Shown: positions 25,030 through 46,840, numbered from the stretch's first letter. The stretch is DNA of 64,000 bases from an uncultured Methanosarcinaceae archaeon (GCA_963733675.1 CAVTET010000004.1:128001-192000), one strand, 5' to 3'. Program-made: numbers and translations. The notes: generated by a model from the sequence alone, not told the origin.

Positions 25030-25957
25030 ATGCAACGTGTTATTCTCCATGTAGACATGGATTATTTTTTTGCAGCTATAGAGGAGCGGGAAAATCCGGA
25101 ACTTAGAGGAAAAGCCATAGTAGTCTGCATGTTCTCAGGACGAAACGAGCTAAGTGGAGCTGTCAGCGCCTGTAACTATGTCGCACGGGAATATGGGATC
25201 ATATCGGGTATTCCTTGTTCGAAAGCAAAAAAGCTGAATCCCAAAGCTGTCTTCCTGCCTGTTAGGAAGGAGTTTTACACACGGTTTCGAACAGGGTCAT
25301 GGAAATTCTTCGAAGTCATGTTGATATCAGAGAGGATAGGGATACCTTTGAGCAAATAAGCATTGATGAGGCATTCTTGGAAATTACTGAAAAAATAGGT
25401 GGGGACTTTAGCCGCGCTTTTGAAATCGGCATGCTGATCAAAAATGAAATCAAGGAAAAAGAAAATCTGACATGTTCAGTAGGTATCGGACCAAATAAGC
25501 TTATTGCCAAGATGACCTCCTCTATAAAAAAACCTGATGGAATCACTGTTGTGAGTCCCAATGAGCTTGAGAGTTTCCTATTGCCTCTTAAAGTGTCCAA
25601 ACTCTGGGGAATTGGTGACGTAACTGCAGGGAAACTGCAGAAAATGGGTGTTGTTATGATAAAGGATCTTGCAGAGCATGATGCTACACACCTGATTTCC
25701 ACATTCGGAAAAAACCGAGGAATCTGGCTCAAAAAAGCTGCAGCAGGAATCGATGATTCTCCACTGAAAGACAGAGATGGTTCCGAACAGATAAGCCGAA
25801 TTTCAACTTTATCTGAAGATACTCTTGACATTCAGCTTATTTTTCAGTTACTTGATAAACTAGTTGAGGATTTAACCTCCAAAATAGATTCAGTGGAACT
25901 CTCCTTCAGGACTGTAACCGTTATGGTCATAAATTCAAACTTTCGAATGTATACTAA
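25030..25957 (+). pseudogene. dinB: Host DNA polymerase IV (DinB/Dbh), 5' part; 1-bp frameshift near 25281 and interrupted by the integrative element at 25957
   Basis: HVDMDYFFAAIE, SACNYVAR, SIDEAFL and KPDG motifs split over two frames; breaks at ..NFRMYT. Confidence 0.93.
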
Positions 25958-25984
25958 CATTTAAACAAAATTGTTAGAATGTAT
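25951..25984. repeat. attL: 7-bp core ATACTAA plus arm repeat TTGTTAGAATGTAT
   Basis: Core matches 46834-46840; the arm is the exact reverse complement of 46806-46819. Confidence 0.88.
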
Positions 25985-26073
25985 TTTATTTTAAATATTC
26001 CAATTTAAAGCTTTTGATTTGAATCGCTATATAGCCTAGATCATTGTAAGGTAAAATGAATATGATAATCTGA

Positions 26074-27174
26074 TTAATAATCAACTATAAGAGTCTGCTT
26101 GTTGTCTCTTGCCCTTAGTTTGGTAACACCTACACCCACAAGCCGTAACTTCTTGTCGTTGAATTCCTCAATTAATTCCATTGCTGTATTTTTAATTACA
26201 TTTATATCAGAAGTCCAAACCGGTACAGACTTCGCACGTGTGAGAGTAGAATAGTTAATTAAACGGACTATGATGGTTACAGTCTTAAACAGACAGTTAT
26301 TTTTCTTTAAGTTCTCATGCACACTACCAGCAAGCATATCTACACTTTTTGCAATTTTATCAGGATCGTCAACATCTTCATCAAAAGTTATGTGCCTGCT
26401 TATGGACTTTACCCCTTCTCTCTCTTCAACATCTTCAAAATCAATGCCTTTGGCGCGTTGTTTCATTAGAATGCCCATTTTACCGAACTTTTCAGAAAGC
26501 ACCTGAACTTTGAAGTTAGCAAGTTCTTCTACCTTGTTTATTCCAATCTCTTTTAGTGCTTCAGTTGTTTTTTTACCAATGTAAGGAATTACAGATACTG
26601 GTAGTGGAAAAAGGAAGTCTCTGACATTTTCAGGTCTAACAACTGTTAACCCATCGGGTTTTTGAAAGCCAGATGCTATTTTGGCTACCAATTTATTTGG
26701 ACTAATACCAACTGAACATGTAATTCCTTCTTGTTGCTTAATTTCATCCTTAATCTTGTGTGCGCAAAGAATAGCATCGTCAAAATCACTAATATTAAAT
26801 GGCACAAGGTAGGCTTCATCTATGCTTACTTGTTCAAATTTTTCAGAAAATCCTCGCAAAATAGACATCACATTGGATGATGCCGTTTTATACAACTCCA
26901 TATTCACAGGTAAAAAAGTGCAATCGGGACACAATTTATGAGCCTTGCTTACAGGCATTGCGGAATATACTCCATATTTCCTTGCTTCGTATGAACATGT
27001 GCTTACAACGCCCCTTCGAAGTGTTGGATCAAACCCCATAACAACACACAGAGCCTTCCCTCTCAAATCAGGATGCTCTCGTACTTCTACTGATGCAAAA
27101 AAAGAATCCATATCAACGTGCAGGACTATCCGCTTTTCAAGGTTATCTGTTTCAGAACTTGAGGCAGACATCAT
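26074..27174 (-). CDS. dinB: Element-borne, intact DNA polymerase IV (DinB/Dbh)
   Basis: HVDMDSFFASVE, STCSYEAR, SIDEAYL, KPDG, LRLVGV and a C-terminal PIP-like QTLIVDY; 366 aa. Confidence 0.95.
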   Translation of the reverse strand: MMSASSSETDNLEKRIVLHVDMDSFFASVEVREHPDLRGKALCVVMGFDPTLRRGVVSTCSYEARKYGVYSAMPVSKAHKLCPDCTFLPVNMELYKTASSNVMSILRGFSEKFEQVSIDEAYLVPFNISDFDDAILCAHKIKDEIKQQEGITCSVGISPNKLVAKIASGFQKPDGLTVVRPENVRDFLFPLPVSVIPYIGKKTTEALKEIGINKVEELANFKVQVLSEKFGKMGILMKQRAKGIDFEDVEEREGVKSISRHITFDEDVDDPDKIAKSVDMLAGSVHENLKKNNCLFKTVTIIVRLINYSTLTRAKSVPVWTSDINVIKNTAMELIEEFNDKKLRLVGVGVTKLRARDNKQTLIVDY

Positions 27175-27461
27175 TGTAAGATGGACAAAACACCTAATAA
27201 AATGTTGTGAAAATCGGGTGCCCTTATATAAAAGCTTTTTAGAAGAGCTAGTTGAGATAGGGATCCAATTAGGCTAAAATTCAGCTTTTCTTACTGCATT
27301 AGAAGCTCACTATAGGAAGAACCGAAGGGGAATGATGCTTTATTACGAGTATAATTGGCTCTAATGATAGCCTGTAAAGAGGCTATCAATTTCGAAACTT
27401 TATCTCTTGAATTATGCATTATTTAACTGGATATTTTATAATATGGATGTAGCAAATTATA

Positions 27462-27496
27462 TATATAATTAAATAGGTAATAGGTTACTGTATTCC
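27462..27496 (+). promoter_or_regulatory. TATA box with NrpR-like operator(s); near-identical to the anfH promoter
   Basis: TATATAATTAAATAGGTAATAGGTTACTGTATTCC, 33/35 identical to the reverse complement of 38645-38679; contains GGTA-N6-TACT and GGTT-N6-TTCC. Confidence 0.7.
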
Positions 27497-27498
27497 CC

Positions 27499-27860
27499 AA
27501 TGATATATTTCGTGATTTTAAAAAACATTAAGCATAGACCAATTGGGAAATGGTAGCAAGATATAGTCTTATGGATTAATTTCATTGGCATGCCAAATAA
27601 AAATGATTTAGGTCATAGTAAGTTCTGACTGGATGGAATAAGTAATTGCCGGACTGGGAGAAGCTTGGTATTATCTCTGGGAAAATATCTTCGGCAGAGG
27701 AAAGTAAAAGTGGATTACTGCTGATGATATGTATTATGATAGGCTCTTAAAAAACTGATCATGATGTTTGTGAAAGATGAAGTCGTCGACGAAGTAATAA
27801 AAAGCATTTTCAGATATATAAATTGGTGGATTATGGACACAGAAATAATCCTAATAGACC
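27499..27860 (+). pseudogene. Vestige of a second nitrogenase operon: nifH-type 3' end and trailer, then a decayed nifI1
   Basis: 27499-27647 matches the anfH 3' end and trailer (37530-37678; MVARYSLMD*); 27650-27860 encodes FGRGK*K.GITADDMYYDRL..LIMMFVKDEVVDEVIKSI (PII/NifI1). Confidence 0.8.
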
Positions 27861-27966
27861 CATTGCAGCGAGAAGACATCTAGTTATTATATATCTACTA
27901 TGAAATCTAGATAAATAATTGCGTCTTAATATAAATGCAAAATCTGAATTAATATAGAGGGAAATT

Positions 27967-28794
27967 ATGAGAAAAAAATTGCTTCTTCTGCTAGTATTAT
28001 TAAGTGTGTTCCTTGCAGTAGGATGCGTTGGTGATAAAAGTGAATCTCCAAATACAACCGGAACTCCAGTTACAGAAGTAACTTCAGCTACAGCTGTACC
28101 TGAAACTATAACAGTTTCTGGAGCTGCTAGTCTTACGGAAGCTTTCACGAACATTGCTTCCAAGTTTAAAAAGGAGAATCCTGGAACGAATATAAATCTC
28201 AACTTTGGAAGTTCAGGTAACCTACGCATGCAAGTAGAAGGGGGTGCACCCGTCGATGTTTTTGCCTCAGCTGATGAGAATCAAATGAATATACTTAGCA
28301 ATAAATCACTTATTGTAAACAGTTCACGAAAAGACTTTGCTCATAATTCACTTGTGCTTATTGTCCCTAAAAGCAGTACTCTTAATATAACGAACATAAA
28401 AGATCTAGCTAATCCTAATGTTCAAAAAATAAGTATTGGAAACCCTGGTACTGTTCCAGTAGGTGAATACTCGCTCCTTGCACTGACTGACGCTGGTTTG
28501 TGGAGTCAGCTAAAAAATAAAGCTGTACTTGCTGAAGATGTCAAACAAGTATTTGTATACGTGGAAAGAGGAGATGTTGATGCAGGTTTTGTATATATAA
28601 CCGATGCAAAGACTGCACAACCTGGGACTATAAAAATAGTCACAAGTGTGCCTGTCAGTACCCCCATCAACTATCCAATAGCTGTAGTTTCTTCTTCTAC
28701 GCACAAAGAAAAAGCTCAGAAGTTCATTGATTTCGTGATCGGGAAAGATGGACAAGACATACTTAGTACATATGGTTTTGTTCCTCAATCTTGA
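27967..28794 (+). CDS. modA: ModA-like oxyanion ABC transporter substrate-binding lipoprotein
   Basis: Lipobox AVGC, GAASLT, NFGSSG.L..Q..GGAPVDVFASA, VPVGEY, DAGFVY.TDA. Confidence 0.9.
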   Translation: MRKKLLLLLVLLSVFLAVGCVGDKSESPNTTGTPVTEVTSATAVPETITVSGAASLTEAFTNIASKFKKENPGTNINLNFGSSGNLRMQVEGGAPVDVFASADENQMNILSNKSLIVNSSRKDFAHNSLVLIVPKSSTLNITNIKDLANPNVQKISIGNPGTVPVGEYSLLALTDAGLWSQLKNKAVLAEDVKQVFVYVERGDVDAGFVYITDAKTAQPGTIKIVTSVPVSTPINYPIAVVSSSTHKEKAQKFIDFVIGKDGQDILSTYGFVPQS

Positions 28795-28981
28795 TAAAAG
28801 ATGAGACTTACGTATCTGAGAAGCAAAATTCAGCATAGCAAGCTTCATAGTTTAAATTGAAATTCAGTTAGTTAAAGCTTTTATGCTCATGATTCTCGGC
28901 TCAATTGCGGAAGTCTTAATTCTTTTTATCACAAGATTTTGAACTCGAGTTATAGTTAGGATTAGGAAAGAGATGAAATAA

Positions 28982-29297
28982 ATGAAAGTCGCTGTCGTTT
29001 CAAGTGATGGCAAGGTTATCAATCAGCATTTCGGAAATGCATCTCGCTTTTTGATATTTGAGGTTGATGGCGGTGAAATTCAATTCACAGAAGTTAGAGA
29101 GACTACACCTTTATGTGGCTCGGCAAATTACGAAAGTAAAGATGACGGTTTTGTGCAGGATAATTTATTTGATTAAAGACTGTGAAGTGGTACTCTGTGC
29201 AAGAATCGGAAGGAAACCAAGAGAGGAATTAAGAGAAAATGGAATTAACCCAATAGAAGCTCCATATTTTATTCATGAAGCTTTAAAAAGTATTTAA
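28982..29297 (+). pseudogene. NifB/NifX-family cofactor-binding protein, frameshifted near 29148
   Basis: [26 protein letters not shown] joined to DCEVVLCARIG..P...L...GI.P in the neighbouring frame. Confidence 0.85.
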
Positions 29298-29545
29298 CTT
29301 ATGCAATTTAATTGTAAAACAGCAGCATAAGCACCGAATTATATAAATTTTAATAATTTGTTGAGTAGAAAAATCTCTCACTGGAAGAACCCAACTACCT
29401 ACAGTACAAAAAAATTTGACTTCGAGTTTACAGCAAATTCACGACACCACCAGCTTTCGAATAGCTATTTTCCCTAATAGTTTAAAGTTGATACTATATT
29501 AGTAGAATATTAATTCAAAAATTTATTAAATGGAATGAACAACAC

Positions 29546-30250
29546 ATGAAAATCCATTACATTCAGCATGTTGAATTTGAAACTCTTGGAACTATCGCTC
29601 AATGGAGCGAAAAAAAGGGGCACTCTTTATCGAGTACACATTTATACGCAGATGAGAGCTTTCCCAGTATGGATAACTTCGATCTTCTCATAATTATGGG
29701 TGGACCGATGAATATTTATGAGTATGAAAAATATCCATGGCTGATTGAAGAAAAAAAGTTTATCGAAGAAACTATCTATGTAGGAAAAGCATTACTCGGG
29801 ATCTGCCTGGGAGCTCAGCTTGTTGCTGATGTCCTAAAAGCTGAGGTATTTAAAAACAATTATACGGAAATTGGATGGTTTCCAGTGTTTACACTCAAAC
29901 AAGCAAGATCCAAGATTTCCTTTTTGGAAAATATTCCTGAAAAAATCATTGCTTTTCACTGGCATGGAGACACTTTTAATTTGCCTGAAGATGCAAAGAG
30001 ACTTTTTTTAAGTGAAGCCTGTGAAAATCAAGGGTTTATTTATAATGATAGAGTAATTGGGCTCCAATTTCATCTTGAAATGAGCAACGAAACAATCAGA
30101 AACGCGATTGAAAATTGCAGTGATGAACTGGTAGATGGAAAATATATCCAGAAAGAAAAAGAAATGCTAAGTAAAGATACACTTCTTGCTGATTCAAGGT
30201 TATTAATGTTCAAATTACTAGATAATTTAGAAAAAATGATTGGATCTTAA
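29546..30250 (+). CDS. Class I glutamine amidotransferase
   Basis: QHVEFE, IMGGPM, LGICLGAQL, WHGDTF, GLQFHLE triad motifs. Confidence 0.9.
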   Translation: MKIHYIQHVEFETLGTIAQWSEKKGHSLSSTHLYADESFPSMDNFDLLIIMGGPMNIYEYEKYPWLIEEKKFIEETIYVGKALLGICLGAQLVADVLKAEVFKNNYTEIGWFPVFTLKQARSKISFLENIPEKIIAFHWHGDTFNLPEDAKRLFLSEACENQGFIYNDRVIGLQFHLEMSNETIRNAIENCSDELVDGKYIQKEKEMLSKDTLLADSRLLMFKLLDNLEKMIGS

Positions 30251-30349
30251 AAAGGAACTCAGTATTTGGCTTTGGAGATAAAATTTAATAAAAATTATTT
30301 TTAGATATACAAAGTGGGAATTCGATAAAATGTAGAGGAAAGGTGTTCT

Positions 30350-30886
30350 TTGATGGATCAGGTTCGCTATACTCAGAGAAATTGCACAGATCGGAAGAAA
30401 ATCGAAAGCTTTCTTTTGCGGGTAAGAACCGGCGTGCTTGGAATGACAAGTGATATTTTTCCATACGCTATTCCGGTGAATTATGTATGGTACAACGGTT
30501 CTGTTTACTTTCATGGCATGGGTTCGGGCAAAAAGGAAAATATTCTTTCTCAGAATCCGTTCGTTTGTTTCACGATATATGAGGAATATGGTACTGTGAC
30601 CGATCCGATGCCTTGCCACGCAGATACGGCATACATGAGCGTAATGCTTTTTGGAAAGGCTGAAAAGGTGACTGATCCTGAGGAGGCTAGCGAGACTCTC
30701 CAAAAATTGGTTGAGAAATATATGCCAAAGTACTACAGTAATCCTTTAACTAGCACTTTGATTGAGAAATATCGCTCTTCACTTGATGGGAATGCAGTTT
30801 CAGTTTTTCGGATAACGCCACAGGAAATGACAGCTAAAGAAAACTCAGTGGGATCCGATAAACTGTTGAACATAGAAACGCGGTAA
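30350..30886 (+). CDS. Pyridoxamine 5'-phosphate oxidase-like split-barrel flavoprotein, probably an Anf3 homolog
   Basis: PYAIPVNYV..GSVYFHG..SGKK, YMSVMLFGKA; adjacent to the anf operon. Confidence 0.75.
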   Translation: MMDQVRYTQRNCTDRKKIESFLLRVRTGVLGMTSDIFPYAIPVNYVWYNGSVYFHGMGSGKKENILSQNPFVCFTIYEEYGTVTDPMPCHADTAYMSVMLFGKAEKVTDPEEASETLQKLVEKYMPKYYSNPLTSTLIEKYRSSLDGNAVSVFRITPQEMTAKENSVGSDKLLNIETR

Positions 30887-31453
30887 CCGTATGCTGTAGT
30901 TACATGAAACAAAGTCGCTTTAGAAAAATGTTCATCCAACGCACCTTTTTATTGTATACTCGACATTAGCAACAACTGATAGTGAAAGCTGTTCTAGGTT
31001 TGTTGGCAGGACTGTTTGAAACAGTACTAGTGATGACTGTTGGATGAAATATGATAGAAGACAAAAGGTACTTTTCATGACCGATAAACATAACAGACGT
31101 GGAAAGTCTAAAATGAAAGAACGAGTTTTTTAATCACTTTTTATGTGTTCTGTCTTAAAACACAGTTTTTATCAATTAACCAGCGAATAGTTGGCTTCCA
31201 ATAAATTGTTTCTATTAAACCGTAAATCTCGGTAACGTCGTAAAAATTATGGCTTTATTCCTTTCGGCCTTGAACTCCGGTCTTGTAAGACAGGCATATT
31301 CGCCAAATATATCAGGCAAACACCCTAGCTCATGTATACATTCGTTTTTCGGCTTAATATAAATATAGTTCCAACGATAATTGCTAAAAGCAAAGGTATA
31401 AAACCGTCTAATCAATATTCTGCATTCAAAACCATAAATTCGACATTATAATA

Positions 31454-32404
31454 TCAGCAGTAACATTCGTCACAAGTATTATGGCAATCCTTAGTGACAA
31501 AATCATCAATTCTGAAAGAGCATTCTGAAATTTTGTATTCCGCATCCGACTTTTCACTTTTTCGTTTGCTGAAGCAAACACATCCGTCGAAAAAACTGAT
31601 CTTCATTGGTACAACTGCCAGCTTGTCGTCAAAATAATAGCTTCTCTTAAATGACGGTTTATGGACTATTTCTTTGCCGTCACGACAAAATACTGTTAGC
31701 TTCACCATGGAAGTTATAAGAGATTTCACGCTTCCATTTTCTGAGAAAACAAGAGAATTGCTTTCACCGTCAATGCCTAGAGCGTCAGGGTCAAAAGCAA
31801 GTACCTTGCCTATTGGCGTATTAACGTTCAAAGCGCTATAAGGCTCGACTGATTTTATTTTCCCATCCGGGTACAGGCAGACCCCAATCCGTGTCTGAAT
31901 TTCTCCTGCATGCGTTTTAATAAGAATTGTATCTTTAGGCCATAATGTAATGCTTTTAAGTTCTCCGGTTTCATATAGTGTTATGTTTATAACCTTACCT
32001 TTAAAGACATCGAACGGTAGATTGATCTGTAATTCTGGAGAAATATTATATTCGTCATCTTCCGTCCAAAAAGCGCTGATGCTCCCAAATACAGGGAAAA
32101 TACGTTTTACTGTCCCGCTTTCATAAAAAGTAATCATCTCTGCTGGAAGGCTCCCAAGCCTTGTATTTACACTCAAAGGATCCTGCAAAACCATACTTGC
32201 AATGTTCCCACTTTCATAAAAGGTCATAGATTTCATGAGCTTTTTCCTTTTTCCATCATCCTTATATTGCGGGATAAAGATGCCACAAGGAATGCTTATA
32301 GCATTTTTTTGTTTTAGAATGCAGCGTTTGATTATTCCGTTTTTATGGTATTCTGCGGAAGCGATACCCTTTAAAACACCATAATTTGTACTTGCTGTTT
32401 CCAA
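31454..32404 (-). CDS. Hypothetical protein with MORN-like YESG repeats, last gene of the anf operon
   Basis: Repeated FYESG/LYETG/LYPDG units; TTG start with RBS overlapping the anfO stop. Confidence 0.7.
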   Translation of the reverse strand: METASTNYGVLKGIASAEYHKNGIIKRCILKQKNAISIPCGIFIPQYKDDGKRKKLMKSMTFYESGNIASMVLQDPLSVNTRLGSLPAEMITFYESGTVKRIFPVFGSISAFWTEDDEYNISPELQINLPFDVFKGKVINITLYETGELKSITLWPKDTILIKTHAGEIQTRIGVCLYPDGKIKSVEPYSALNVNTPIGKVLAFDPDALGIDGESNSLVFSENGSVKSLITSMVKLTVFCRDGKEIVHKPSFKRSYYFDDKLAVVPMKISFFDGCVCFSKRKSEKSDAEYKISECSFRIDDFVTKDCHNTCDECYC

Positions 32405-32418
32405 ATAATCGCCGCCTT

Positions 32419-33048
32419 TCACAGAGTTTGCACATGCACTATTTTAACGGTCTTTTCATTCGGCAATGAATTCACAGTTTCATATTCAAACCCTAAGACT
32501 CTTAAATTTGTAGTAAACCACTTTGAAATATGACTGCAAATGACATCCAGACGGTTGAATTCTCCATTTTTCAGATAGGGTAACAGAATTTTCTTTGAAG
32601 TTAGTTGCGGATTCTTTGAAAGGATTTTTTCCATATTAAGACAAAAATCACCTTTATTCGTACCAGGTTCCAAAAATTGCATGATATCGAATTTGCTGGG
32701 TTTCCCCTGCTGCTTCTCAATTATCTCCCTCATTTCTTTTTTGACTGAATCGAGAACATCAAACCCACTTTTTTCTACAAGGAATATTGCAAAGCCTGCT
32801 ACTTCAAAAATACCGGACGCTATTCCTGGTATTTCACTTGCAACCACTATTTTTACATTATCAAGCTGCTTTATGGTATCCTCCACAGCCATGCGTACTG
32901 CAGCAATACTCTTTGCGCTGCAAACTTTATTTTCAAATCTGTTCAGGACTTTCCATTCCCCACCATCTTCTTCATATGTTACAATGAATCCCGGTTCAAA
33001 TATTGAACTCGTTTTTTGGTCATTGCTTTCTACAACTGAAATTTTCAA
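32419..33048 (-). CDS. anfO: Fe-only nitrogenase accessory protein AnfO
   Basis: Downstream of anfK; LTSKKILLPYL and LDVICSHI motifs; TTG start with GGAGG RBS. Confidence 0.8.
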   Translation of the reverse strand: MKISVVESNDQKTSSIFEPGFIVTYEEDGGEWKVLNRFENKVCSAKSIAAVRMAVEDTIKQLDNVKIVVASEIPGIASGIFEVAGFAIFLVEKSGFDVLDSVKKEMREIIEKQQGKPSKFDIMQFLEPGTNKGDFCLNMEKILSKNPQLTSKKILLPYLKNGEFNRLDVICSHISKWFTTNLRVLGFEYETVNSLPNEKTVKIVHVQTL

Positions 33049-33363
33049 GACACATCCTCCTTTCGTGTTGCAATTCACGAAGATTTCGGGCAAGATTAAA
33101 ATATTTTCTCGCCATCGGAACTATCTATTAGATTTACATAAGCTGCGTGGGATTAATTTCACAGTCATAAGAATATATTGTTGAGGCAGTCCGAATAGAT
33201 CCCACTGCTTGCATCCGGGTATGCCAGAGAAAATTTGATTTGCGTCTTTTTCGGAGGGATTTTGCCAGAATGTGATTCCAATCAGGAACTGGCAGAATCT
33301 AATAAAATCCCAGCTAAGTCTTACAACATTTGATTCTCAGAATCCTCATTTATTGAATATTCC

Positions 33364-35126: not shown

Positions 35127-37110
<1,984 letters not shown>

Positions 37111-37122
37111 AATTGTACCCTC

Positions 37123-37597: not shown

Positions 37598-38446
<849 letters not shown>

Positions 38447-38644
38447 TTAGAGTTTATCCGAAAACTCATCATTTATTTATTTAAACATCATACTCTTTTG
38501 AACACCATATTTGAAACAATCAATAGCTTCTGAACAGAAATAGCGATATTTGTCTTCCGTTGCTCACTTCTTTTTATGACCCCCAGAGTATAGTTCGTGT
38601 GCATTTGGTATGTTTATTTCTAAATAATTAGTGACAAATTTAAA

Positions 38645-38679
38645 GGAATACAGAAACCTATTACCTATTTAGTTATATA
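38645..38679 (-). promoter_or_regulatory. anfH promoter: TATA box followed by NrpR-like operator(s)
   Basis: Minus strand TTTATATAACTAAATAGGTAATAGGTTTCTGTATTCC ~220 bp upstream of anfH; duplicated at 27462-27496. Confidence 0.7.
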
Positions 38680-38920
38680 AATAGTTTTTTATCACTTAGT
38701 GTTATCAATTTTTTGGTTATAACATACTATTCTAGGGGCATAGGTAAATCATTACAAAAAACAACATCAGTAATTCTGTTATTCCTGAAAAAAGTACTTG
38801 ATTTGTCTTGTATTGAATTTATGATTCAAACCCGAGTTTGACAGTTTAATAAAAGTACTTGCTCTTTTTTAAGTCCCAAATTTCTAATACCAAAACTAAA
38901 ATTACCATCTTTATTCTCAT

Positions 38921-38960
38921 TCGAATACCAAGCAGCTTGCTGCAGGGATGGAAACTTCCC
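38921..38960. mobile_element. Solitary IS200/IS605-type end
   Basis: TCGAATACCAAGCAGCTTGCTGCAGGGATGGAAACT resembles the ends at 20074 and 20660-20696. Confidence 0.55.
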
Positions 38961-39024
38961 CGGAAACCGTTGTTAATTAACAAACGTTAGAAACTATTTA
39001 TGTTATAGTTAGTATTTTGTATTG

Positions 39025-39058
39025 TTTATCTATATATATATATATATATATAGATAAA
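39025..39058. repeat. 34-bp perfect palindrome TTTATC(TA)11GATAAA
   Basis: Read directly from the sequence. Confidence 0.9.
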
Positions 39059-39554
39059 TAACGTTATTTATATGAGAATCGTAGCTAAACAAAAATAGCG
39101 GTTCAAAAATGTGAAATGATAAAACTTAAAGACTGTCCATAAAGTCATTAATGGCATGTTGTAAAGTATCCAGACAGGTAGCGGAAAATATACGTAAATG
39201 TTATGAACTCATTAGAAGCCCATGGTGAAGTTTAAATCACCGCGCTAATAGAAGATTACAGACTTGCTAAAAATTATGCTTTAGATGGATTATAAGGATA
39301 TATTTTTATAATTTGCATACTATAAATTAGTTTCAAAATATCAAGATGATATTCAAAGTTTAACCCAGGCAAATAGCAGGCAAAACATTAAGCTGCTTCT
39401 GGCCAGTGCAGAAAAAAGAAGGTGGGTGGATATTTTGCTTAGTTAGGCTACAATTAAGCCAGCATATAAAATGAAAAATAAAGTATATTCGTGAAAATAG
39501 GTCTAATTCGGATAAAAACGTTTAGACAATCAGTAATTTGTGACTTTATTTAGC

Positions 39555-39971
39555 TCAAACAAACTTCTCTAGAATTTCTTTTCTAATTTCATCTGTGTCT
39601 TTAACTATTATCTCAACATTCTCATTTTTGTTGTCTGAAACTGAATTAATTTTCCTATAGACCCTTCTTCCAAAGTCTGCCGAAAAGCGTCTCTCGAGTA
39701 TCCAAAGACATATCCGAGTGTCTCCAGCTTTTGCCGCTAAGTTTAGGCGTTCCAAAAGTGCTTTTGCGGCATCAGCATTCCGCTGTTGGATAAATGTATA
39801 AAACTCAAAATATTTTCCAGATTTCTCTATCTTACCCCTATTCATATAATAATTGAAAGTTTTATACGTGATTCCTGCAGCTTCGGCAGCAAGAGAATAT
39901 GTGAGTCCCAAAGAAACATTATCACCGATTTTATTTTGTAGTTCAGGAGTTAATTTACAAGGTCTCGCCAT
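39555..39971 (-). CDS. Terminase small subunit-like HTH protein
   Basis: MARPCKLTPE...AAEAAGIT..TF..Y HTH, then WILERRF..DFGR; resemblance judged by eye. Confidence 0.55.
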   Translation of the reverse strand: MARPCKLTPELQNKIGDNVSLGLTYSLAAEAAGITYKTFNYYMNRGKIEKSGKYFEFYTFIQQRNADAAKALLERLNLAAKAGDTRICLWILERRFSADFGRRVYRKINSVSDNKNENVEIIVKDTDEIRKEILEKFV

Positions 39972-40597
39972 GGTCGCACCGTTTTTTATTTTAAATAATT
40001 GATATAAGTGGATCTTGTATTTAATATTAAGTTAGTTTTGTTCCGTATTAGATGGGCTTTAGGCTGGATTATTCAAAAAGAACTATTAGAGTGGTGTTCG
40101 ATATGTTTGACTATGCTAATTAATTAATAGGACTCTCACTAAAAGTCTCCCTACTATCCCCAGAATAAGGCCATTGTTTGGACAAATCAAATCCCCATGA
40201 TTTTACTGCCATGGCACGGTGAGTACCCACGAGACATTTTTCATATATTTTCATTACTTTTAAATAATATAAATTACATATATATTATATTTACTTCCAT
40301 TTTTAGATAGGATTTCGCATAAATTACATAACACTGCAGTTCACGAGATCAACGTTTTTGGTATCTAAGGTTAGCCTGATCACGATAATGTCTAAATAAA
40401 TTTTGATTTTAAAATTAATAACATTATGGTTGCAATTTTGGCTATCAAGTCAATTAATAAAAATTTATGGCACCTTTTGCCGTCTCTTGGCACTTCGAAG
40501 GATATTAGATAGATATTGCTTTATAAAGTTGGGCTTTATCTAACATGATATTTAATGTATATACATCCATATAATTTAATTTTATTACCTGGAATCG

Positions 40598-40954
40598 TTA
40601 TTCGGTTGTTAACACGTGTATTTTTAAAGTGGGATATCCTTCATAAAAATTATCACATAAAACAGTTACAATGGGACTTTTACCCCGTTGTCTTATAGTT
40701 TTGATCATCCCACAATTTTCTAAATCGTCCAATGCTTTCGGAAAAGCCCAATCCGGGATAGGTAAAAATGAATTTATACCTTTTAAAGTGACTACTAAAT
40801 CATTAGATTTCTTCACCCCTTTTAAATGCCAAATATACATAGCCATCCTGTATGTATGCCCCACTGAATTGGATGGTAACTTCACAATCCATTCTGAAGG
40901 CATTTGAGCTATGAAAGAACCTTTTATTTTATCTTTAGAATTTACCAACATCAT
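40598..40954 (-). CDS. Winged-helix protein of the PolA module (putative origin-binding protein)
   Basis: KALDDLENCGMIKTIRQRGKSPIVTV wHTH-like C-terminus; directly downstream of the repeat array. Confidence 0.55.
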   Translation of the reverse strand: MMLVNSKDKIKGSFIAQMPSEWIVKLPSNSVGHTYRMAMYIWHLKGVKKSNDLVVTLKGINSFLPIPDWAFPKALDDLENCGMIKTIRQRGKSPIVTVLCDNFYEGYPTLKIHVLTTE

Positions 40955-41054
40955 CTTACCCCATTATAATACTATTTTTAAATATTAAGAATAAATAAAG
41001 AAGATATATAAAAGAAATATAAGTAGTAAAACCGATATCATAAGACTTTAGAAT

Positions 41055-41159
41055 TTAGCTGTACAGCTAATTAATTTTAGCTGTAGGGCGAAATATATTT
41101 TGCTGTGCAGCTAATTAATCTTGCTCTACAGCTAAATTGGAATTTGGCTTTATAGCTAA
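41055..41159. repeat. Array of five 16-bp imperfect palindromes (consensus TTAGCTGTACAGCTAA), iteron-like
   Basis: Units start at 41055, 41077, 41099, 41120 and 41144; next to a very AT-rich tract at 40955-41050. Confidence 0.85.
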
Positions 41160-41205
41160 ATGGAATAGTCTGCCAAAGATTTTTGAGCCCCATTTATTAT
41201 GATTT

Positions 41206-42960
41206 TTACTCTTGCTTTACTTCTGTGAGTATCCGCATAATAAGCTCCCAAGTTTCGGCACCTTTCTCGTCTATATACCTGTAAGGATAGCGGACAATAT
41301 CGACATCCGTTTTCAGTCTGTTACCAGCACCTAAAACAAGTTCGGATGCATCAGACATCAGCTTTCTTGCTTCCTCTATCTCTTTGTCTGCCCCTTTTTC
41401 ATCGCACTCAATCATCAACGCATCGTGAACTGGAGCAACAATTTTAATTTTATTCTCCGAAAGAAGGATGCATGCGACTCTCAGAATTTCAGCCCCAGTG
41501 GCTTGAATTGGGAAATTTCGGACGGTCAACATTTCCTTATTGCTGGAGCCCGAAACAATCATTTTCCATTTATAACAGGTTTCAATCCTTTTCATTAAGC
41601 AGGCTTGAGTCCAGATCATATCTACCCAGCGCCAATAATTCTTGAAGACTCTTTTATGGTGACTAAGCAGTTCCTTGGCATAAGGTGTAGGCTTATCAAT
41701 TTTAACCCCAAGTGATTCTGCACCCAGGCCATACTGAACACCAAGTACACACGATTTAAAGAGCTGTCTCATACTGCCATGCGTTTCTTTTGTAGCGTCT
41801 GCTGGAACTGCACCTGCTAATTTCGCAAAAGCCAGATATGGATCCCCACTCTGATATGCTTCAATCATATTAGGATCATTAGAGAGAACTGCTGCAATAA
41901 AGAACTCTTGCTGTGCATAATCAATATACGCAAGTACTTTCCCCTCAGTCGGTGTTATGAGACTTCTCAGACTAGCAGGAAGCCCAAACATAAACCTAAC
42001 TCTTAATTCTCCTCTATTTTTTTTCTCTTCGTCATCCTTAGGGGCATTTCTACCGGTCTTAGTCCAGAAAGGAGAGATTAAGGTTCGACTTCTGTCATCT
42101 GAACCAGCTATAATAGACTTGAAGTTTAACCCGCCGATGAGAGCTTTTAATTCTTTCAAAGGCCCGATTTCAGGATGGATTTCCGCCATTTCCTTGAAAG
42201 TTTCCTTATCGGTTTTTGGCAGACCTGTCTCGGTTCTTGGCCACATCCAATTATTGACTTGTATAAATCTTTCGAAATTATTGACCTTAAAACTGGTTCC
42301 TTCGTAAATTCCAAATTTGTCGATATTTTTTATCAATTTGAATTTTATTTTTTCCCAATTTTCTTGTAACTCGTTAAGTAAATCGGCATCAATTGGTATA
42401 CCATAATATTCGATTTCTGCCACATATTTCATATACTCTCCTCGAAAGAGCGAAGTGGGTACGTCGAAATCAGGGACTGTAATCGTCCGTTTGAATAACT
42501 CTACTGTTTCAAGCACGTCAGATTCGCAATAACTCATAATGTATTCTTGATCTTCTTCCGAGTAAGGAGCGCCAGCTAAAACACGATCTCTTGCAGCATC
42601 TTTCTCCACTTTACTAATAGTCTCTATTCCAAAAGCTTTACACGCATCCAGTAAGTTTGCACCTCTTCTTTCATAAGAATGATTAGAAAAGCATCTGTAC
42701 TCTACGAACGTATCAATCACATTGAATGGTAAGGGCCAGTTTAAGACCAGGTGGCATCCCCACTCCGCTGAGCTCATATGGGCAACAAACAAGTCATTTT
42801 CACCTATTGAGTAGGGCGGCTGTGGATTGCTTTCTTCAAAAAGCCACAGTCTTTTAGTTTCGCCAGAATTTATCTCATGGAAAACAACACAGACAGGTAA
42901 GGGATGTTCGCTAGGTTTTGCGATAAATTCGAAGTCCACAATGTAGACGTGGTCAAAAAT
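41206..42960 (-). CDS. Family A DNA polymerase (3'-5' exonuclease + polymerase, no 5' nuclease), fused in frame to the end of the upstream gene
   Basis: ExoI VDFEF, ExoIII YCESDV, motif A IDYAQQE, motif B RQLFKSCVLGVQYG, motif C VHDALMIE. Confidence 0.88.
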   Translation of the reverse strand: MFDHVYIVDFEFIAKPSEHPLPVCVVFHEINSGETKRLWLFEESNPQPPYSIGENDLFVAHMSSAEWGCHLVLNWPLPFNVIDTFVEYRCFSNHSYERRGANLLDACKAFGIETISKVEKDAARDRVLAGAPYSEEDQEYIMSYCESDVLETVELFKRTITVPDFDVPTSLFRGEYMKYVAEIEYYGIPIDADLLNELQENWEKIKFKLIKNIDKFGIYEGTSFKVNNFERFIQVNNWMWPRTETGLPKTDKETFKEMAEIHPEIGPLKELKALIGGLNFKSIIAGSDDRSRTLISPFWTKTGRNAPKDDEEKKNRGELRVRFMFGLPASLRSLITPTEGKVLAYIDYAQQEFFIAAVLSNDPNMIEAYQSGDPYLAFAKLAGAVPADATKETHGSMRQLFKSCVLGVQYGLGAESLGVKIDKPTPYAKELLSHHKRVFKNYWRWVDMIWTQACLMKRIETCYKWKMIVSGSSNKEMLTVRNFPIQATGAEILRVACILLSENKIKIVAPVHDALMIECDEKGADKEIEEARKLMSDASELVLGAGNRLKTDVDIVRYPYRYIDEKGAETWELIMRILTEVKQE

Positions 42961-43501
42961 GGGATGATTATGGTCTTCGATGGTTTTGTCCTTGAAAGCT
43001 ATCTCCATAGCTTTTATTATGTTTTCCGGTTCCTCAGGCCATTCCGGATCCGGAAGTTTACTCATTGCGAAAACCGTATCGTAAACCCCAATTGAGTCAT
43101 TTGTTTGAAGCTTTACCCAATGAGTTTCTGCCTTTTTGTAAGCTAACCTTCTGGTACGGGTTATACTCATGATCCTTCCCCTCTGCGTCAGGTTGGTCGA
43201 TTTCTGAGAGAAATATTTCACCCGACCCGTAGGTAATGCCCGTATAAATTGTGACAAGTTTTAACTTTTTAGTCTCGACCACCTCAGGGTATAGAGCTCG
43301 ATTGAGAAGGTATTTTCCTTCTTCACCACTGCTGCCACCCAAATCTAAAATGTAGGTAGGAAACTTCCATTCGGATTCAGGCCTGATCCTGAAAAATTCC
43401 ACACCAGGTTTAGGTTTCTTGACAGGAATTGAAGTTACTGCACGTTTCACAATGATGGGGGTAGCTTCAGTGACTCGGAGAGCCTAAAAATTAAAAGCCA
43501 T
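42961..43501 (-). pseudogene. PolA-associated hypothetical protein with an in-frame amber at codon 6 and a +1 frameshift near 43158
   Basis: MAFNF*ALRVTEATPIIVKRAVTSIPVKKP...DHEYN|RTRRLAYKKAETHWVK...PDPEWP...AFKDKTIEDHNHP. Confidence 0.65.
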
Positions 43502-43603
43502 TTAAATCCCCCAATGTTAAATAAAAGGTCGCTAGGTTGTACATGCAACCGTTGGTTGCAGAGCTGAAAACGAAAATTATATTTATTGTGTAGACCATAT
43601 TAT

Positions 43604-43840
43604 TCATGATGCATCACTTCTCATTTCTGGGTCGATCTGTTCTTGTAGGTCACTAGCGATGAAAGTAGGCATCTGTAGGGGTGTTTTGCGAAATTTCCGA
43701 TTGCTTGGACGCTGCGGTATTTTCAAAGCACTTTCATCAACACTTTTGGTTAGTATGATTTTTGACTTTTCAACCCATCTTTCTAGGCTCGTATACCTTT
43801 TTTGAAAACCAAGAATATCAAATTCGGTTTTTAGTATCAA
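43604..43840 (-). CDS. Small hypothetical protein in the element operon
   Basis: Start overlaps the upstream stop (43837-43840). Confidence 0.4.
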   Translation of the reverse strand: MILKTEFDILGFQKRYTSLERWVEKSKIILTKSVDESALKIPQRPSNRKFRKTPLQMPTFIASDLQEQIDPEMRSDAS

Positions 43841-44028
43841 AGCAATCCCCTCTCTCGTTTTATAGCTTGAAGAGTTGTTTCTCCACGTTCAACAGAGTTT
43901 TTTATTTGCTGGAGACGATCCTGAGCCATTTGCTCAATTTTGAGCATAGTTTGAAACGCTTTTGGCATGTGCTGATTCAGTTCGATGTTTATGGAAAAAT
44001 TCTTATCATCTTCTGATACAGGATTCAT
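43837..44028 (-). CDS. Small hypothetical protein in the element operon
   Basis: ATGA-type overlap with the AbrB-like gene. Confidence 0.55.
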   Translation of the reverse strand: MNPVSEDDKNFSINIELNQHMPKAFQTMLKIEQMAQDRLQQIKNSVERGETTLQAIKRERGLL

Positions 44029-44231
44029 TGGTATTCACCACCTTGTATAGGGTTAAGAGCTGCCGTATCTTGTAGGGTATCGCCAGCTATGATTCTCAGT
44101 CTTTTTTCGCTGTCCATCTCTACAACTACAGTTTTCACGTCTAAACCCATTGATTTCATCCACTGCATTTGAAGCGAAATCATGTAGCTTCCACTTTGTT
44201 TGATTACGTTTCTTTTTCCAAATTTGAACAT
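44025..44231 (-). CDS. AbrB/MazE-like swapped-hairpin DNA-binding protein
   Basis: RNVIKQSGSYMISL..QWMKSMGL...VVVEMD...LRI; GAGGT RBS. Confidence 0.7.
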   Translation of the reverse strand: MFKFGKRNVIKQSGSYMISLQMQWMKSMGLDVKTVVVEMDSEKRLRIIAGDTLQDTAALNPIQGGEYQ

Positions 44232-44297
44232 ATTTACCTCTTAATTAATGTTGTAATGCAAATTAGAAGATGAAATTAATCATATATATTTATTTTT

Positions 44298-44448
44298 TAT
44301 AGGTAATAAATATCAAAATACCTATATATAGGTAAATTTGTACAATTCACCTACTATTAATATGCCGGTTACCAATATATCTTAATAAACGTTTGAGCTA
44401 CCTATAAAATATGAAAACAGAAACTAATAAAGAACTAATTATAGGTAG
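44298..44448. promoter_or_regulatory. Divergent promoter region with repeated TATAGGTA half-sites and the palindrome TACCTATATATAGGTA (44319-44334)
   Basis: Half-sites at 44298, 44319/44327, 44399 and 44440, between or overlapping two divergent regulator genes. Confidence 0.55.
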
Positions 44449-45421
44449 TTTATTAGAATCCCCAAAAACGACTGGACAATTAGCATGTGAGCTAAACTAT
44501 GTTAATAAAAAAGGCATTGCAGGTTACAGTACAATTAGGAACGATTTACAAGATCTTGTAGAAAATGGATACATTGAAGGTGAAAAGGTAAAATCCGGGA
44601 AACTGGGAATCCCTCCAACATTATATTCAACTACCCTAAACATTCAGAATCTGAAACTGATACTGGAAGAGTATCCTCGCTTGATGCCAAAAATGCAAAA
44701 AAACGCTTCCATTTCCAAAAATATATTATCTCATTATTCGGATATAATTTATGGTTCAAATGATAGTGAATATTATAGCACCTTTGGGGGAAATGGAAAT
44801 GAAGGCTGGTCTATAGAGTCTAGGGAACTATTTATCCACGCCATGTATTCATTTTCTGATCCACTTTCTGATTCACTTAAGAAGGATTGGGAAGAAAATT
44901 CAGGAGATAAACTTTTTGAAAACACAAAAAGAGATTTTGAGAAAAAATTACAATTGTCCCCTGAATTCTTCAGACTTTTTCTGACCAATGACAAGAATAA
45001 ATTAATGATAGATATTAAACAACTTTCTGAGCTGTCAGAAAATAACATAATATACCTAACGGATTGGGACTATGAGCATCATCCAGATAACTCGCTATCG
45101 ATATTTGCAATAACTTTATCCATCAACATAGCATTCGAAGCATGCGTTTCCATGGATATAATAAAAGGACAATCAAATAGAGAAGCTATAAAATACTTAA
45201 CACAAAAAAAGAACGAAATATCAGATGCAGAAATTGCACATTTAAGAAACTATTATATGCATACTAAACTTGCACCTGAGTTTCTTAAAGGGAAAAAATT
45301 AATTCCCATCAAGAACCCCAAACTTGAAAAGATAGAACGAGAATTCAAAGACCATGGAGGAGATTACCTAGTTTATTATACTCCGATAAACCGGGGATAT
45401 AATAACAGGATAGTCTACTAG
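44411..45421 (+). CDS. N-terminal winged-HTH protein, putative element repressor
   Basis: LLESPKTTGQLACEL...YSTIRNDLQDLVENGYI...PTLYS wHTH; C-terminal domain not recognised. Confidence 0.65.
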   Translation: MKTETNKELIIGSLLESPKTTGQLACELNYVNKKGIAGYSTIRNDLQDLVENGYIEGEKVKSGKLGIPPTLYSTTLNIQNLKLILEEYPRLMPKMQKNASISKNILSHYSDIIYGSNDSEYYSTFGGNGNEGWSIESRELFIHAMYSFSDPLSDSLKKDWEENSGDKLFENTKRDFEKKLQLSPEFFRLFLTNDKNKLMIDIKQLSELSENNIIYLTDWDYEHHPDNSLSIFAITLSINIAFEACVSMDIIKGQSNREAIKYLTQKKNEISDAEIAHLRNYYMHTKLAPEFLKGKKLIPIKNPKLEKIEREFKDHGGDYLVYYTPINRGYNNRIVY

Positions 45422-45502
45422 AATTAAGATTTTGACAGTTTAATTCTGTCTATTTCTGGTTTTCAGTTTGGGTGCACAAATCCTATATTAAAAAGTTATT
45501 TT

Positions 45503-46792
45503 TTAAGTTATTTTAGCTAACAGTTCGTTAAGTCTCGTTTCTACCATTTCCTCCATTTTCTTTTCGAGTAGGCGTTCTAATTCGGAATCTATCGGCTTCA
45601 TTTTCTCGATTTCTGTCCTTAATTCCTGCAGTTCAGAACGCTCTACGACATGCCGTGCTGTCTCAGCCTGTAATATTTGGTTTTCCTGCTTAATCCTGAG
45701 ATATTCCTGGCTTTCGCTTATGTCAGTCTCTTTTTGTATTGTGAGATAAGGCACACAAGTTTTGAATCGTTCTTTTAATTGATCTGCATCGTGCCAGAAG
45801 TAGGTCCTATCTGTTGAGTTAGCTTTGTGTCCAAGCATATGATCAACAAAATAAAAATCAAATCCTGCGTTGATAAGTGCGGAGTTGAAATACTTTCTCA
45901 TGTTGTGGCTTCTTACTATTGCCCATCCATTGGGATTTTCTTTTCCGCACTTCTCAGAGAGCCGAGCATACAATCTATTGAACGAATCATCAGTATACTT
46001 ACGTACGTCTTCCTTTGCTTGCCATTGTTCATCTGTTCCACAAGGCATTTCGAGGTATTTATCTGAAATATTCCTGAGAACGAAGAGATAACCCTCATCT
46101 CTAGTTACAAGTTGTTTTTCTAACTGAGTCCTGCGTACGGGGTTCATTCCTTTCTTCGGAGCCCTGTTTCTGAACTTGATATAATAATTAACTGCATTAG
46201 AGGCTTCTGGTGTTAAAAATGTGCAGAACAGAACTCCTGTTTTAGTCCTTCTCAATTTCAGTGTAGTAATTCCTGTTTCAGGGTCGTAATTTCCCTTGAA
46301 ATCGCTTATTCTCAAATTGCATATGTCAGCGGCGGCTAGTCCACTTGAAATACCAGTGAGAACAATAGCTTTTTCTAGCACGTCAGCGACTTTGAGCACG
46401 TCACAGATATCATCTTTCAAAATTTGTTTTGTGTTTTCCTTCTTAGGCTCAACAACATTGTTACCTTGTAACTTTGGGACTTCTACATAGAAAGCTTTGT
46501 AAAAACTGACTACACAGTTAATATAGTTCCTGACTGAAGTGGGCGCAAAATTGTTTTCCAAGTATTTCCTGAAACCAAGTAATCGAGTAAGAATTTTACG
46601 CCTTCTCATAATTATTTGCTTTGAAGCTTCATCTTCCGCTTCAGTCAATAATTCATCTGGTGTTAAGCCAGTAAATTGAATATACTGATTGAAACCGATT
46701 AGGTAGTTATCCACTGTCTTAGGTTTCTTTCTAATAATGTCTATCCACTGTATTATAACAGGATCGTTCTTCAAGTCTGTGTAATTCGTCAT
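45503..46792 (-). CDS. Tyrosine recombinase/integrase
   Basis: RRTKTG (K), SHNMRKYF (HxxR), MLGHK and TYF (Y) motifs; C-terminal coiled coil; starts next to attR. Confidence 0.92.
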   Translation of the reverse strand: MTNYTDLKNDPVIIQWIDIIRKKPKTVDNYLIGFNQYIQFTGLTPDELLTEAEDEASKQIIMRRRKILTRLLGFRKYLENNFAPTSVRNYINCVVSFYKAFYVEVPKLQGNNVVEPKKENTKQILKDDICDVLKVADVLEKAIVLTGISSGLAAADICNLRISDFKGNYDPETGITTLKLRRTKTGVLFCTFLTPEASNAVNYYIKFRNRAPKKGMNPVRRTQLEKQLVTRDEGYLFVLRNISDKYLEMPCGTDEQWQAKEDVRKYTDDSFNRLYARLSEKCGKENPNGWAIVRSHNMRKYFNSALINAGFDFYFVDHMLGHKANSTDRTYFWHDADQLKERFKTCVPYLTIQKETDISESQEYLRIKQENQILQAETARHVVERSELQELRTEIEKMKPIDSELERLLEKKMEEMVETRLNELLAKIT

Positions 46793-46805
46793 CTAACCAG
46801 TTTTT

Positions 46806-46840
46806 ATACATTCTAACAAATAAATACGTTTTCATACTAA
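46806..46840. repeat. attR: arm repeat ATACATTCTAACAA plus core ATACTAA
   Basis: Mirror of attL, with a 13/14-bp core-to-arm spacing. Confidence 0.88.

Follow-up and report, generated by a model that had tools for sequence, protein, structure and literature searches.

A complete operon for Fe-only nitrogenase was found on an integrated element in the genome of an uncultured Methanosarcinaceae archaeon. The stretch of DNA that was analysed, here called the window, comprises 64,000 nucleotides (positions 128001-192000 of contig C4 of genome G000), and the element takes up positions 25958-46840 of it, as a 20.9-kb insertion within the dinB gene of the host. We consider it likely that this is an integrated site-specific element of the Methanosarcinaceae, and that its nitrogenase (anf) genes were captured from the chromosome and have since moved or been recombined between lineages. 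This reading draws on the insertion and its ends, the gene content, a slot of variable content, the anf locus native to relatives, a scar elsewhere in G000, the mosaic structure of the element, and its presence in a second host background.

G000 is a metagenome-assembled genome of 3.92 Mb in 15 contigs, 92% complete and with 2.66% contamination. It was compared with a panel of 59 genomes from the same genus and with a wider panel from the order (201 genomes, 28 genera). Twenty open reading frames (ORFs) were scanned against Pfam and ten against PHROGs, and the Anf and DinB proteins were scored against the NCBI equivalog cut-offs.

The limits of the element were found where the preliminary description of the window had placed them, between two copies of the 7-bp direct repeat ATACTAA, which form the cores of the left and right attachment sites (attL and attR). 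Close to each core is one of a pair of perfect 14-bp inverted arms (TTGTTAGAATGTAT and its complement), which are kept in the copy of the element in genome G063. The direct repeats are meaningful because of the empty sites in relatives, not because of the length of the repeat. When the dinB loci of relatives were aligned, a check that the preliminary description had proposed, dinB ran uninterrupted through one copy of the core in all nine same-genus loci inspected (L002-L010), the core being ATAC[T/A/C]AA or a one- to two-base variant of it. Both flanks were matched by BLAST in five of the nine, with an overlap of exactly 7 bp. The site was also empty in G032, and in G046, whose flanks are about 91-92% identical to those of G000, it was empty and intact with an identical core. 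In total, 11 of 12 inspected same-genus genomes had a contiguous one-core site, while the site of G050 could not be judged. At this conserved position there are 11 empty sites and four occupied genomes plus metagenome contigs. No genome examined combined anf at this position with an intact dinB and no integrase, the contrary case named beforehand.

The host dinB is divided by the element into two parts. The N-terminal part aligned by tblastn with residues 14-95 and 97-312 of an intact DinB2 (the reference DinB has 366 amino acids), in two frames, and shared 73-79% identity with dinB in 18 genomes of the genus, the gene being present in all 18 that were drawn. The C-terminal part, matched by eye and by reading of the frame, supplies the 57 codons that complete the gene and is contiguous with the N-terminal part in the dinB of relatives. 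The block is confirmed as a genuine site-specific insertion, and its integrase gene adjoins an attachment site.

The operon lies wholly inside the element in the order anfH-nifI1-nifI2-anfD-anfG-anfK-anfO. It was uninterrupted, as first described: all of its ORFs were open, and AnfH, AnfD, AnfG, AnfK and AnfO all scored above the NCBI cut-offs (Table 1). Vnf models all scored below their cut-offs, the VNFD model reaching 712.6 bits on AnfD (cut-off 823.1). At the equivalog level the predicted AnfD, AnfG and AnfK proteins are those of an Fe-only nitrogenase, distinct from Vnf and Nif. The true start of anfD is probably near 36700, the family match beginning at residue 37. The G+C content was 0.43-0.45 across anfK-anfD and 0.30-0.40 elsewhere; the higher value fits conserved coding sequence and is uninformative on origin. 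Homologues of nifE and nifN are encoded on contig C1. The other matches to AnfD in a tblastn search of G000 were NifD, NifE and a relative at 23%, and a copy on contig C12 is decayed. Apart from the copy in the element, no intact alternative nitrogenase was found in the genome.

Integrases 84-94% identical to that of the window were found in only three genomes of the genus panel: G063, G059 and G062. In each of them the integrase occupies the dinB site found in G000, the att ends are shared, and dinB2, the second dinB gene that the element itself carries, is present in full length; anf is absent there. Between the TerS-like gene and dinB2 is a slot that in G000 is filled by an 11.5-kb block (27399-38902). 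This slot holds genes for an ABC ATPase, a permease, an Nramp protein and an MgtE-N/CBS protein in the G063 element (about 16.5 kb) and is empty in that of G059 (about 8.8 kb). The G062 element is degraded and has a 4.5-kb TPR/CHAT insert in tandem at the att site. Since three sister elements lack anf in the slot, its content is variable. The G062 insert (L027:11379-15953, on C18 of that genome) encodes TPR and CHAT domains and lies between two copies of the att/left-end sequence as a tandem occupant.

Analysis of the relatives showed where an anf block of this kind resides on the chromosome. AnfG was encoded in 18 of the 59 genus genomes. In G046 and G063 the block, 92-94% identical to that of the window from 27399 on, starts 66 bp away from the sequence homologous to G000 C1:907853, which is the end of the molybdenum nitrogenase (Mo-nif) region. 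On its far side, G046 has ordinary chromosome homologous to G000 C5:150431-151316. In G063 and G059, anfH is followed by the TerS-like gene, orf118, the family A DNA polymerase gene (PolA) and orf117 of a sister element, which in G063 terminates at the contig end with a gene for a different tyrosine integrase. The preliminary description had proposed testing whether other anf clusters are flanked by this integrase and a split dinB. In five more distant genomes (G004, G031, G032, G050 and G061), no element genes were found near anf at 45% identity or more and E ≤ 1e-8, in the stretches fetched, two of which were on short contigs.

In G000 the corresponding place holds a scar (C5:150431-152198), in which the far flank is followed by a 154-bp remnant of the PNPOx gene, 210 bp derived from the region upstream of modA, and then a 604-bp repeat. 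A further copy of the repeat is at C1:907859, abutting C1:907853 (stretch C1:907853-908462). The repeat resembles an insertion sequence (IS): it has 88 BLAST hits genome-wide, contains a 162-amino-acid ORF and starts with GAGGCTATCCGAAAAG, and its copies are 93-97% identical; two are in the window (5820-6432 and 19474-20074). Because both halves of the scar end at copies of this repeat, a repeat-mediated rearrangement between the two places is indicated. Judged by its sequence, the scar is the deletion remnant of a native, nif-adjacent anf locus. The preliminary description had left it open whether anf arrived as cargo or was captured by the element. The sister elements without anf, the block beside nif in G046 and G063, and the scar in G000 fit capture best.

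The decayed second copy (C12:16069-22495) extends from modA into anfK and shows about 89% identity with every other copy. It contains modA, nifX, a frameshifted glutamine amidotransferase gene, the PNPOx gene, a frameshifted MORN gene, anfO, and residues 149-462 of anfK in pieces. In a tree of anfK (947 columns, 13 rows) it fell outside the clade formed by the G000 element, G059, G063 and G046, with support of 99/97. Among the ORFs viewed, its flanks contained ordinary-looking genes and an IS6-like transposase. As a separate observation, a stretch of about 250 bp to the right of the host dinB (window 47736-47990) is 68-69% similar to a stretch beside a paralogue of the amidotransferase gene in the nif regions of G046 and G063.

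The element itself is a mosaic. On the right, homology to the anf blocks of relatives reached 38902 with G046, 38758 with G063 and 39418 with G059. From 40.7 to 43.5 kb the window was 84-96% identical to the anf-linked element of G063 and 78-94% identical to the dinB element of the same genome, the gap between the two being clearest at 42.7-43.5 kb, where the anf-linked element was closer. From 43.9 kb on, only the dinB element matched, at 83-91%. The G000 element can be divided by these similarities into three pieces: the left end of a dinB element, the anf block with the replication module of a sister element, and the right end of a dinB element. Recombination between the dinB element and the sister element is the simplest reading of this mosaic. 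No homology is evident at the left junction (27327-27398), and this simple reading does not explain the crossover there. A hairpin at this junction (GATAGCCT and AGGCTATC separated by 6 bases) was considered as an IS footprint and rejected, as its match to the terminus of the 604-bp repeat covers just 8-9 bases, which is too short.

Relatives of the integrase were also found at six metagenome loci. One of them (L061) shows the host flank, attR, the integrase (98% amino acid identity), orf336, PolA, the TerS-like gene (95% amino acid identity), anfH, nifI1, nifI2 and anfD in the same order as the window. Identity to the window was 99.0-99.7% in anf, 95-98% in the intergenic and TerS-like part, 78-91% in the PolA module (with one 300-bp window at 98%), and 99.0-99.3% in the integrase. 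Just outside attR it was 92%, and it was 93% over a further 6.4 kb of flank. The step at attR was measured against G000 over 1147 bp inside (45687-46833) and 377 bp outside (46841-47217). L061 differed at 12 positions inside and 34 outside, compared with 48 and 41 for G063 and 105 and 34 for G059, which served as controls. The flanks of L061 are 90-94% identical to G059, G062, G063 and G046, and its anf genes are just 92-95% identical to those of G046, G059 and G063. This pattern indicates that the element parts shared by G000 and L061 have a much more recent ancestor than the chromosome around them. It is indirect but pointed evidence, from sequence comparison, that the anf-bearing form has crossed between lineages, and it lends the same indirect support to the earlier suggestion that the element is a vehicle for spread. 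Of the other loci, L065 is a degraded form without anf, and L062 and L064 are further variants of the backbone.

Table 1. Features of the element and of the interrupted host gene, in window coordinates.
Feature	Position	Strand	Matches and remarks
Host dinB, N-terminal part	25030-25957	+	Pseudogene; ends at att core; frameshift near 25280-25300
attL core, ATACTAA	25951-25957		Left copy of 7-bp direct repeat
Left 14-bp inverted arm	25971-25984		13 bp from core; conserved in attL of G063
dinB2, DNA polymerase IV, 366 amino acids, intact	26074-27174	-	PF00817, PF11799, PF11798; NF002677 332.9 bits (cut-off 256)
Junction of left module and anf block	27327-27398		Sister-element homology stops near 27326; nif-adjacent block homology begins at 27399
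Relic of second nitrogenase operon	27462-27752	+	Shared with G046, G063
ModA-type molybdate-binding protein	27967-28794	+	TIGR01256 208.5 bits (cut-off 62.5); PF13531
NifX/NifB-C-type gene (Nitro_FeMo-Co)	28982-29297	+	PF02579 on both halves; two frames here
Class-I glutamine amidotransferase	29546-30250	+	PF00117
PNPOx-family flavoprotein	30350-30886	+	PF12900
MORN-repeat protein, 322 amino acids	31454-32422	-	PF07661; translationally coupled to anfO; kept in G046, G059, G063
anfO	32419-33093	-	TIGR02940 248.2 bits (cut-off 129.15)
anfK	33364-34752	-	TIGR02931 952.7 bits (cut-off 853.85)
anfG	34766-35116	-	TIGR02929 172.4 bits (cut-off 124.7)
anfD	35127-36809	-	TIGR01861 1113.4 bits (cut-off 873.8)
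nifI2 (P-II-type regulator)	36730-37110	-	ORF; 42% identical to nif-linked NifI2 on C1
nifI1 (P-II-type regulator)	37123-37488	-	ORF; 57% identical to nif-linked NifI1 on C1
anfH (iron protein)	37598-38425	-	TIGR01287 456.7 bits (cut-off 394.35)
anfH upstream region and repeat patchwork	38426-39554		Right boundary of anf block; 1.1 kb of repeat debris
TerS-like helix-turn-helix gene, 138 amino acids	39555-39971	-	phrog_4102, E = 2e-20
orf118	40598-40954	-	No Pfam or PHROGs match; adjoins PolA in all sister elements
Family A DNA polymerase (PolA) with exonuclease region	41206-43257	-	PF00476 E = 1.2e-27; phrog_17 E = 1e-49
orf117	43097-43450	-	Overlaps 5' end of PolA ORF; kept in sister elements; no family match
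Three small ORFs, 78, 63 and 68 amino acids	43604-44231	-	No family match
orf336	44411-45421	+	Divergent from small ORFs; no family match
Tyrosine integrase, 429 amino acids, intact	45503-46792	-	PF00589 41.3 bits (cut-off 27.1); phrog_216 E = 6e-18
Right 14-bp inverted arm	46806-46819		14 bp from core
attR core, ATACTAA	46834-46840		Right copy of 7-bp direct repeat
Host dinB, C-terminal part	46834-47009	+	57 codons completing the gene

The backbone genes recognised earlier were borne out by the family scans for the integrase at one end, the PolA module and the TerS-like gene, while the regulator pair reported with them had no match in Pfam or PHROGs. The three small ORFs are possible regulators; those of 63 and 68 amino acids are kept in the dinB element of G063 (E1) and in L061, L062 and L064, and orf336 is 80-90% identical in these four and in L066. 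The start codon of the integrase gene is 41 bp from the attR core, and the gene is not split by integration. Tyrosine recombinases have the catalytic residues R..HxxR..H/W..Y. The integrase could be aligned to the XerA structures 4a8e and 5hxy, and its HxxR (SHNMRK), GH and Tyr (TYF) motifs fell into register with XerA, with Ala at the position of the first Arg. Members of the integrase family were found in 39 of the 59 genus genomes (E ≤ 1e-10) and in 48 of the 201 order genomes, from 11 of 28 genera (E ≤ 1e-30).

The dinB2 gene, which the preliminary description did not include, sits at the left end inside the element. It is full length in G063, G059 and G062, with 89-96% identity, and probably replaces the function lost with the split host gene. 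PolA is presumed to be the replicase of the element. It is just 22-26% identical to plasmid and phage PolA, and a search for episomal relatives in IMG/VR contigs found none. Further PolA modules are present in G000 at C4:49137-55600 (about 73-79 kb before the window start), C1:1066242-1072365, C12:273431-275200 and C12:315879-317635; their proteins are 85-91% identical, and their integrases are broken or missing. Most PolA copies break the long frame near residue 100, which suggests two genes; the copy in the window reads as one ORF. The TerS-like gene had 45 high-scoring segment pairs elsewhere in G000 by tblastn (about 40 places on ten other contigs, 50-77% identical). It is thus far more numerous than the PolA modules and behaves like an independent repeat family.

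An element of the same build occurs at G000 C5:55450-67664 and on contig C90 of G046 (L060), with a frameshifted integrase, orf117, PolA, orf118 and copies of the TerS-like gene. At its end is a disrupted gene of the dinB2 type, and beyond that comes a further dinB paralogue, full length and 61% identical. The element family seems to be tied to dinB genes in general.

Several other genes accompany the operon in the slot. The ModA-like gene of the preliminary description was confirmed well above the family cut-off. The gene that had been called Anf3-like is indeed a companion of the operon, encoding a PNPOx flavoprotein that accompanies anfO, but its likeness to Anf3 is weak: the best structure match was 2hti (E = 6e-54), and 6rk0 reached just E = 8e-6. 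The PNPOx gene adjoins anfO or anfK in G004, G031, G032, G050 and G061. The NifX-like gene is split at about 29147. Contigs from two metagenome runs (X5 and X6) lack one base at this point, a change that would restore the frame, and those of a third run (X1) match the window. In G059 the gene occupies a single frame. The split is a strain difference or an assembly error. The relic near the left junction consists of a 35-bp inverted copy of part of the sequence upstream of anfH, nine C-terminal residues of a NifH protein, and a nifI1 pseudogene containing stop codons. Repeats in the patchwork upstream of anfH include a 75-bp repeat found in many places in the genome (38910-38984), a TA run (39018-39065) and a 250-bp repeat (39102-39353). 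An NrpR-type operator, taken as GGAA-N6-TTCC, was also sought. It had three matches in the window, none of them upstream of anfH, and 16 of 100 shuffled sequences did equally well, so this candidate was dropped.

The following course of events would account for these data. The tyrosine integrase, if active as predicted, would recombine a site on the element (right end, ATACTAA, left end) with the same core inside the codons of dinB. Integration splits dinB, and the dinB2 borne by the element would probably make up for the loss. The backbone consists of the integrase, orf336, the small ORFs, orf117, PolA, orf118 and the TerS-like gene, and PolA would carry out its replication. The anf block would originally have been a chromosomal neighbour of the Mo-nif operon, a sister element, belonging to this family too, would have inserted next to anfH, and recombination of this sister element with an element resident in dinB would have carried the block into the latter. 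The native anf copy would then have been deleted; the order of these events is our proposal. Finally, the anf-bearing version would have moved or recombined between host lineages, by a cell-to-cell route that we can only postulate.

One concern is that the contig joins a dinB element and a separate anf locus by mistake, through repeats common to both. The assembly does consist of 15 contigs with 2.66% contamination, and it contains several PolA modules that are 85-91% identical and many repeats; furthermore, the TA run (39018-39065) breaks short-read contigs, and that stretch is unbridged in the contigs shown. Twenty public runs, from soil and peat metagenomes, held part of 25700-29700, six of them at least half of the sampled words, and Logan contigs of four runs from four studies (X1, X4, X5 and X6) were placed on 25700-45699. 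Contigs of X1, X5 and X6, from three studies, bridged attL, and the junction of dinB2 and anf was bridged with 0 differences in X1 and 15-24 differences in X5 and X6, while the X4 piece ended at 27382. Bridging contigs from three independent studies make a misassembly unlikely. In addition, L061 independently links attR, the integrase, PolA and the TerS-like gene to anfH through anfD, and the other PolA copies in G000 are less than 92% identical, too diverged to collapse. Taken together, an artefact of assembly is very improbable. A loose contig end at 38978 (X1, X4 and X5) was considered as an alternative junction and rejected: its letters are found at G000 C1:938242-938271 beside a paralogous repeat, and it is not a population variant.

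Several observations weigh against capture followed by movement between lineages. No attP junction, empty attB or excised form was present among the Logan contigs, which represent assembled sequence only, over 25700-45699, a span that does not include the right end of the element. No capsid, conjugation or relaxase family was matched among the ORFs scanned, and all 11 aligned integrases of the family carry Ala or Ser in place of the first catalytic Arg of XerA. The host dinB remnants of G000, G063 and G062, though not that of G059, are frameshifted at different places, which indicates that the site has long been occupied and that the sister copies may stem from one old integration. The anfK tree placed the G000 element copy as sister to those of G059, G063 and G046, which is compatible with vertical descent, and the finding of a single intact anf operon applies to the assembled part of a 92%-complete genome. 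As for L061, it was viewed from attR as far as anfD, with the left end outside the stretch; it could, as a metagenome contig, be a mosaic of strains; and the sequence outside attR on which the identity step depends is largely a decaying pseudogene.

Some of these points favor a history without mobility, in which G000, G063, G059 and G062 owe their elements to vertical inheritance of one ancient integration into dinB, the element is now immobile, and anf was shuffled in by repeat recombination within the genome. The four related genomes do share an occupied site with independent frameshifts, no attP or attB variant was placed, the integrase has no canonical first Arg, and G062 and L065 are clearly degraded. 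The repeat debris at the boundary of anf and backbone and the 604-bp repeat at the native site also suit such a history. It is harder to reconcile with L061, where integrase and anf are about 99% identical, the flank is 91-93% identical, and the step falls at attR. The integrase of G063 is likewise closer to that of G000 than its flank is (4.2% and 10.9% different), although that of G059 is not. Moreover, G046, which is no more distant from G000 than the occupied genomes, has an empty and intact site with an identical core. G000 retains intact versions of the integrase, the PolA domain, dinB2 and both att arms, and Ala or Ser at the first Arg position is, from the alignment, a trait of the whole integrase family rather than a lesion. 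We regard this purely vertical history as unlikely, while giving it more weight than the remaining alternative, that the element is a virus satellite or defective provirus whose TerS-like protein redirects the packaging of a helper, so that anf travels in helper capsids. The matches of the TerS-like protein and PolA to phage families (phrog_4102 and phrog_17) point in that direction, and a backbone without capsid or conjugation genes in the family scans implies that some helper is needed for transfer. However, the TerS-like gene, with copy numbers far above those of the PolA modules, behaves like a separate repeat, the phage and IMG/VR comparisons gave PolA no close viral relative, and a helper virus is not known. 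This makes a satellite origin rather improbable.

The integrated element with captured anf thus remains the reading that we prefer. An extension of it can be offered tentatively, as possible but the less probable outcome: that this is an active, self-replicating, dinB-targeting family of peat and soil Methanosarcinaceae with a plug-in slot, which shuttles anf between species-level lineages and is possibly packaged by a helper virus by means of the TerS-like protein. Alternative nitrogenases are unevenly scattered among methanogens, and horizontal transfer is the usual explanation. We know of no carrier for such transfer in archaea. The element described here would be a concrete and testable one: it is small, with defined att sites, an intact integrase and replicase (both predicted) and a slot that takes up metal transporters or anf. 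With an anf-bearing copy in a second, diverged host background, it is a plausible vehicle for the spread of molybdenum-independent nitrogen fixation. It also illustrates a route of capture, in which a sister element lands beside a chromosomal operon and the two elements then recombine, and it has the uncommon arrangement of disrupting a repair polymerase gene and supplying its own. If an active family does shuttle anf, then the patchy distribution of anf among methanogens may in part be the footprint of the element.

The element represents an undescribed family of integrative elements with anf as captured cargo. In the literature searched, some of it available in part, there was no Anf operon on an archaeal integrative element and no dinB-targeting element in Methanosarcina; the nearest system was that of PMC13444090. 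According to the available part of a review of archaeal tyrosine recombinases, most integration sites are tRNA genes and some are in coding genes, and the words 'dinB' and 'cargo' do not occur in that part (PMC8371274). Classical, non-suicidal integrase elements of archaea, as treated there, resemble this one in having the integrase next to att, short direct repeats flanking the insert and some protein-coding targets, whereas the dinB target, the replacement paralogue, the family A polymerase and the nitrogenase operon are particular to the present element (PMC8371274). The available text of a 'dark matter' survey does not mention an element with a family A polymerase. Elements of the SSV and pT26-2 type are also archaeal and integrative with a tyrosine recombinase, but, in the portion of the source at hand, their att site is inside the integrase gene, which is split on integration (PMC7253208). 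Here the integrase ORF is intact (45503-46792) and the core is outside it (46834-46840), with att 41 bp upstream of the gene.

Two known systems combine mobility with nitrogen fixation. Symbiosis islands and nif-bearing integrative conjugative elements are bacterial, measure hundreds of kilobases and transfer by conjugation, using type IV secretion genes that they encode themselves. In this element no transfer genes were found among the scanned ORFs, and no backbone ORF matched a relaxase, coupling protein or type IV secretion family. The ICESyms of Mesorhizobium, as far as described in the part of the source available, are alike in being site-specific integrase elements that spread nitrogen-fixation cargo among related strains (PMC8627217). 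The jumbo circular elements of Methanoperedens are closer: the accessible part of their description presents mobile elements of archaea of the same order with host-like NifHDK-type operons and metal transporters, one of them integrated by a tyrosine integrase with direct repeats (PMC13444090, published in 2026). As given there, those elements are 53-535 kb in size, use tRNA-Asp, and carry chromosome-type replication genes and Mo-type nitrogenases of 'Group IV-A and VII' (PMC13444090). In contrast, the element described here is 21 kb in length, carries a bona fide Fe-only (Anf) operon, and resides in a Methanosarcinaceae genome.

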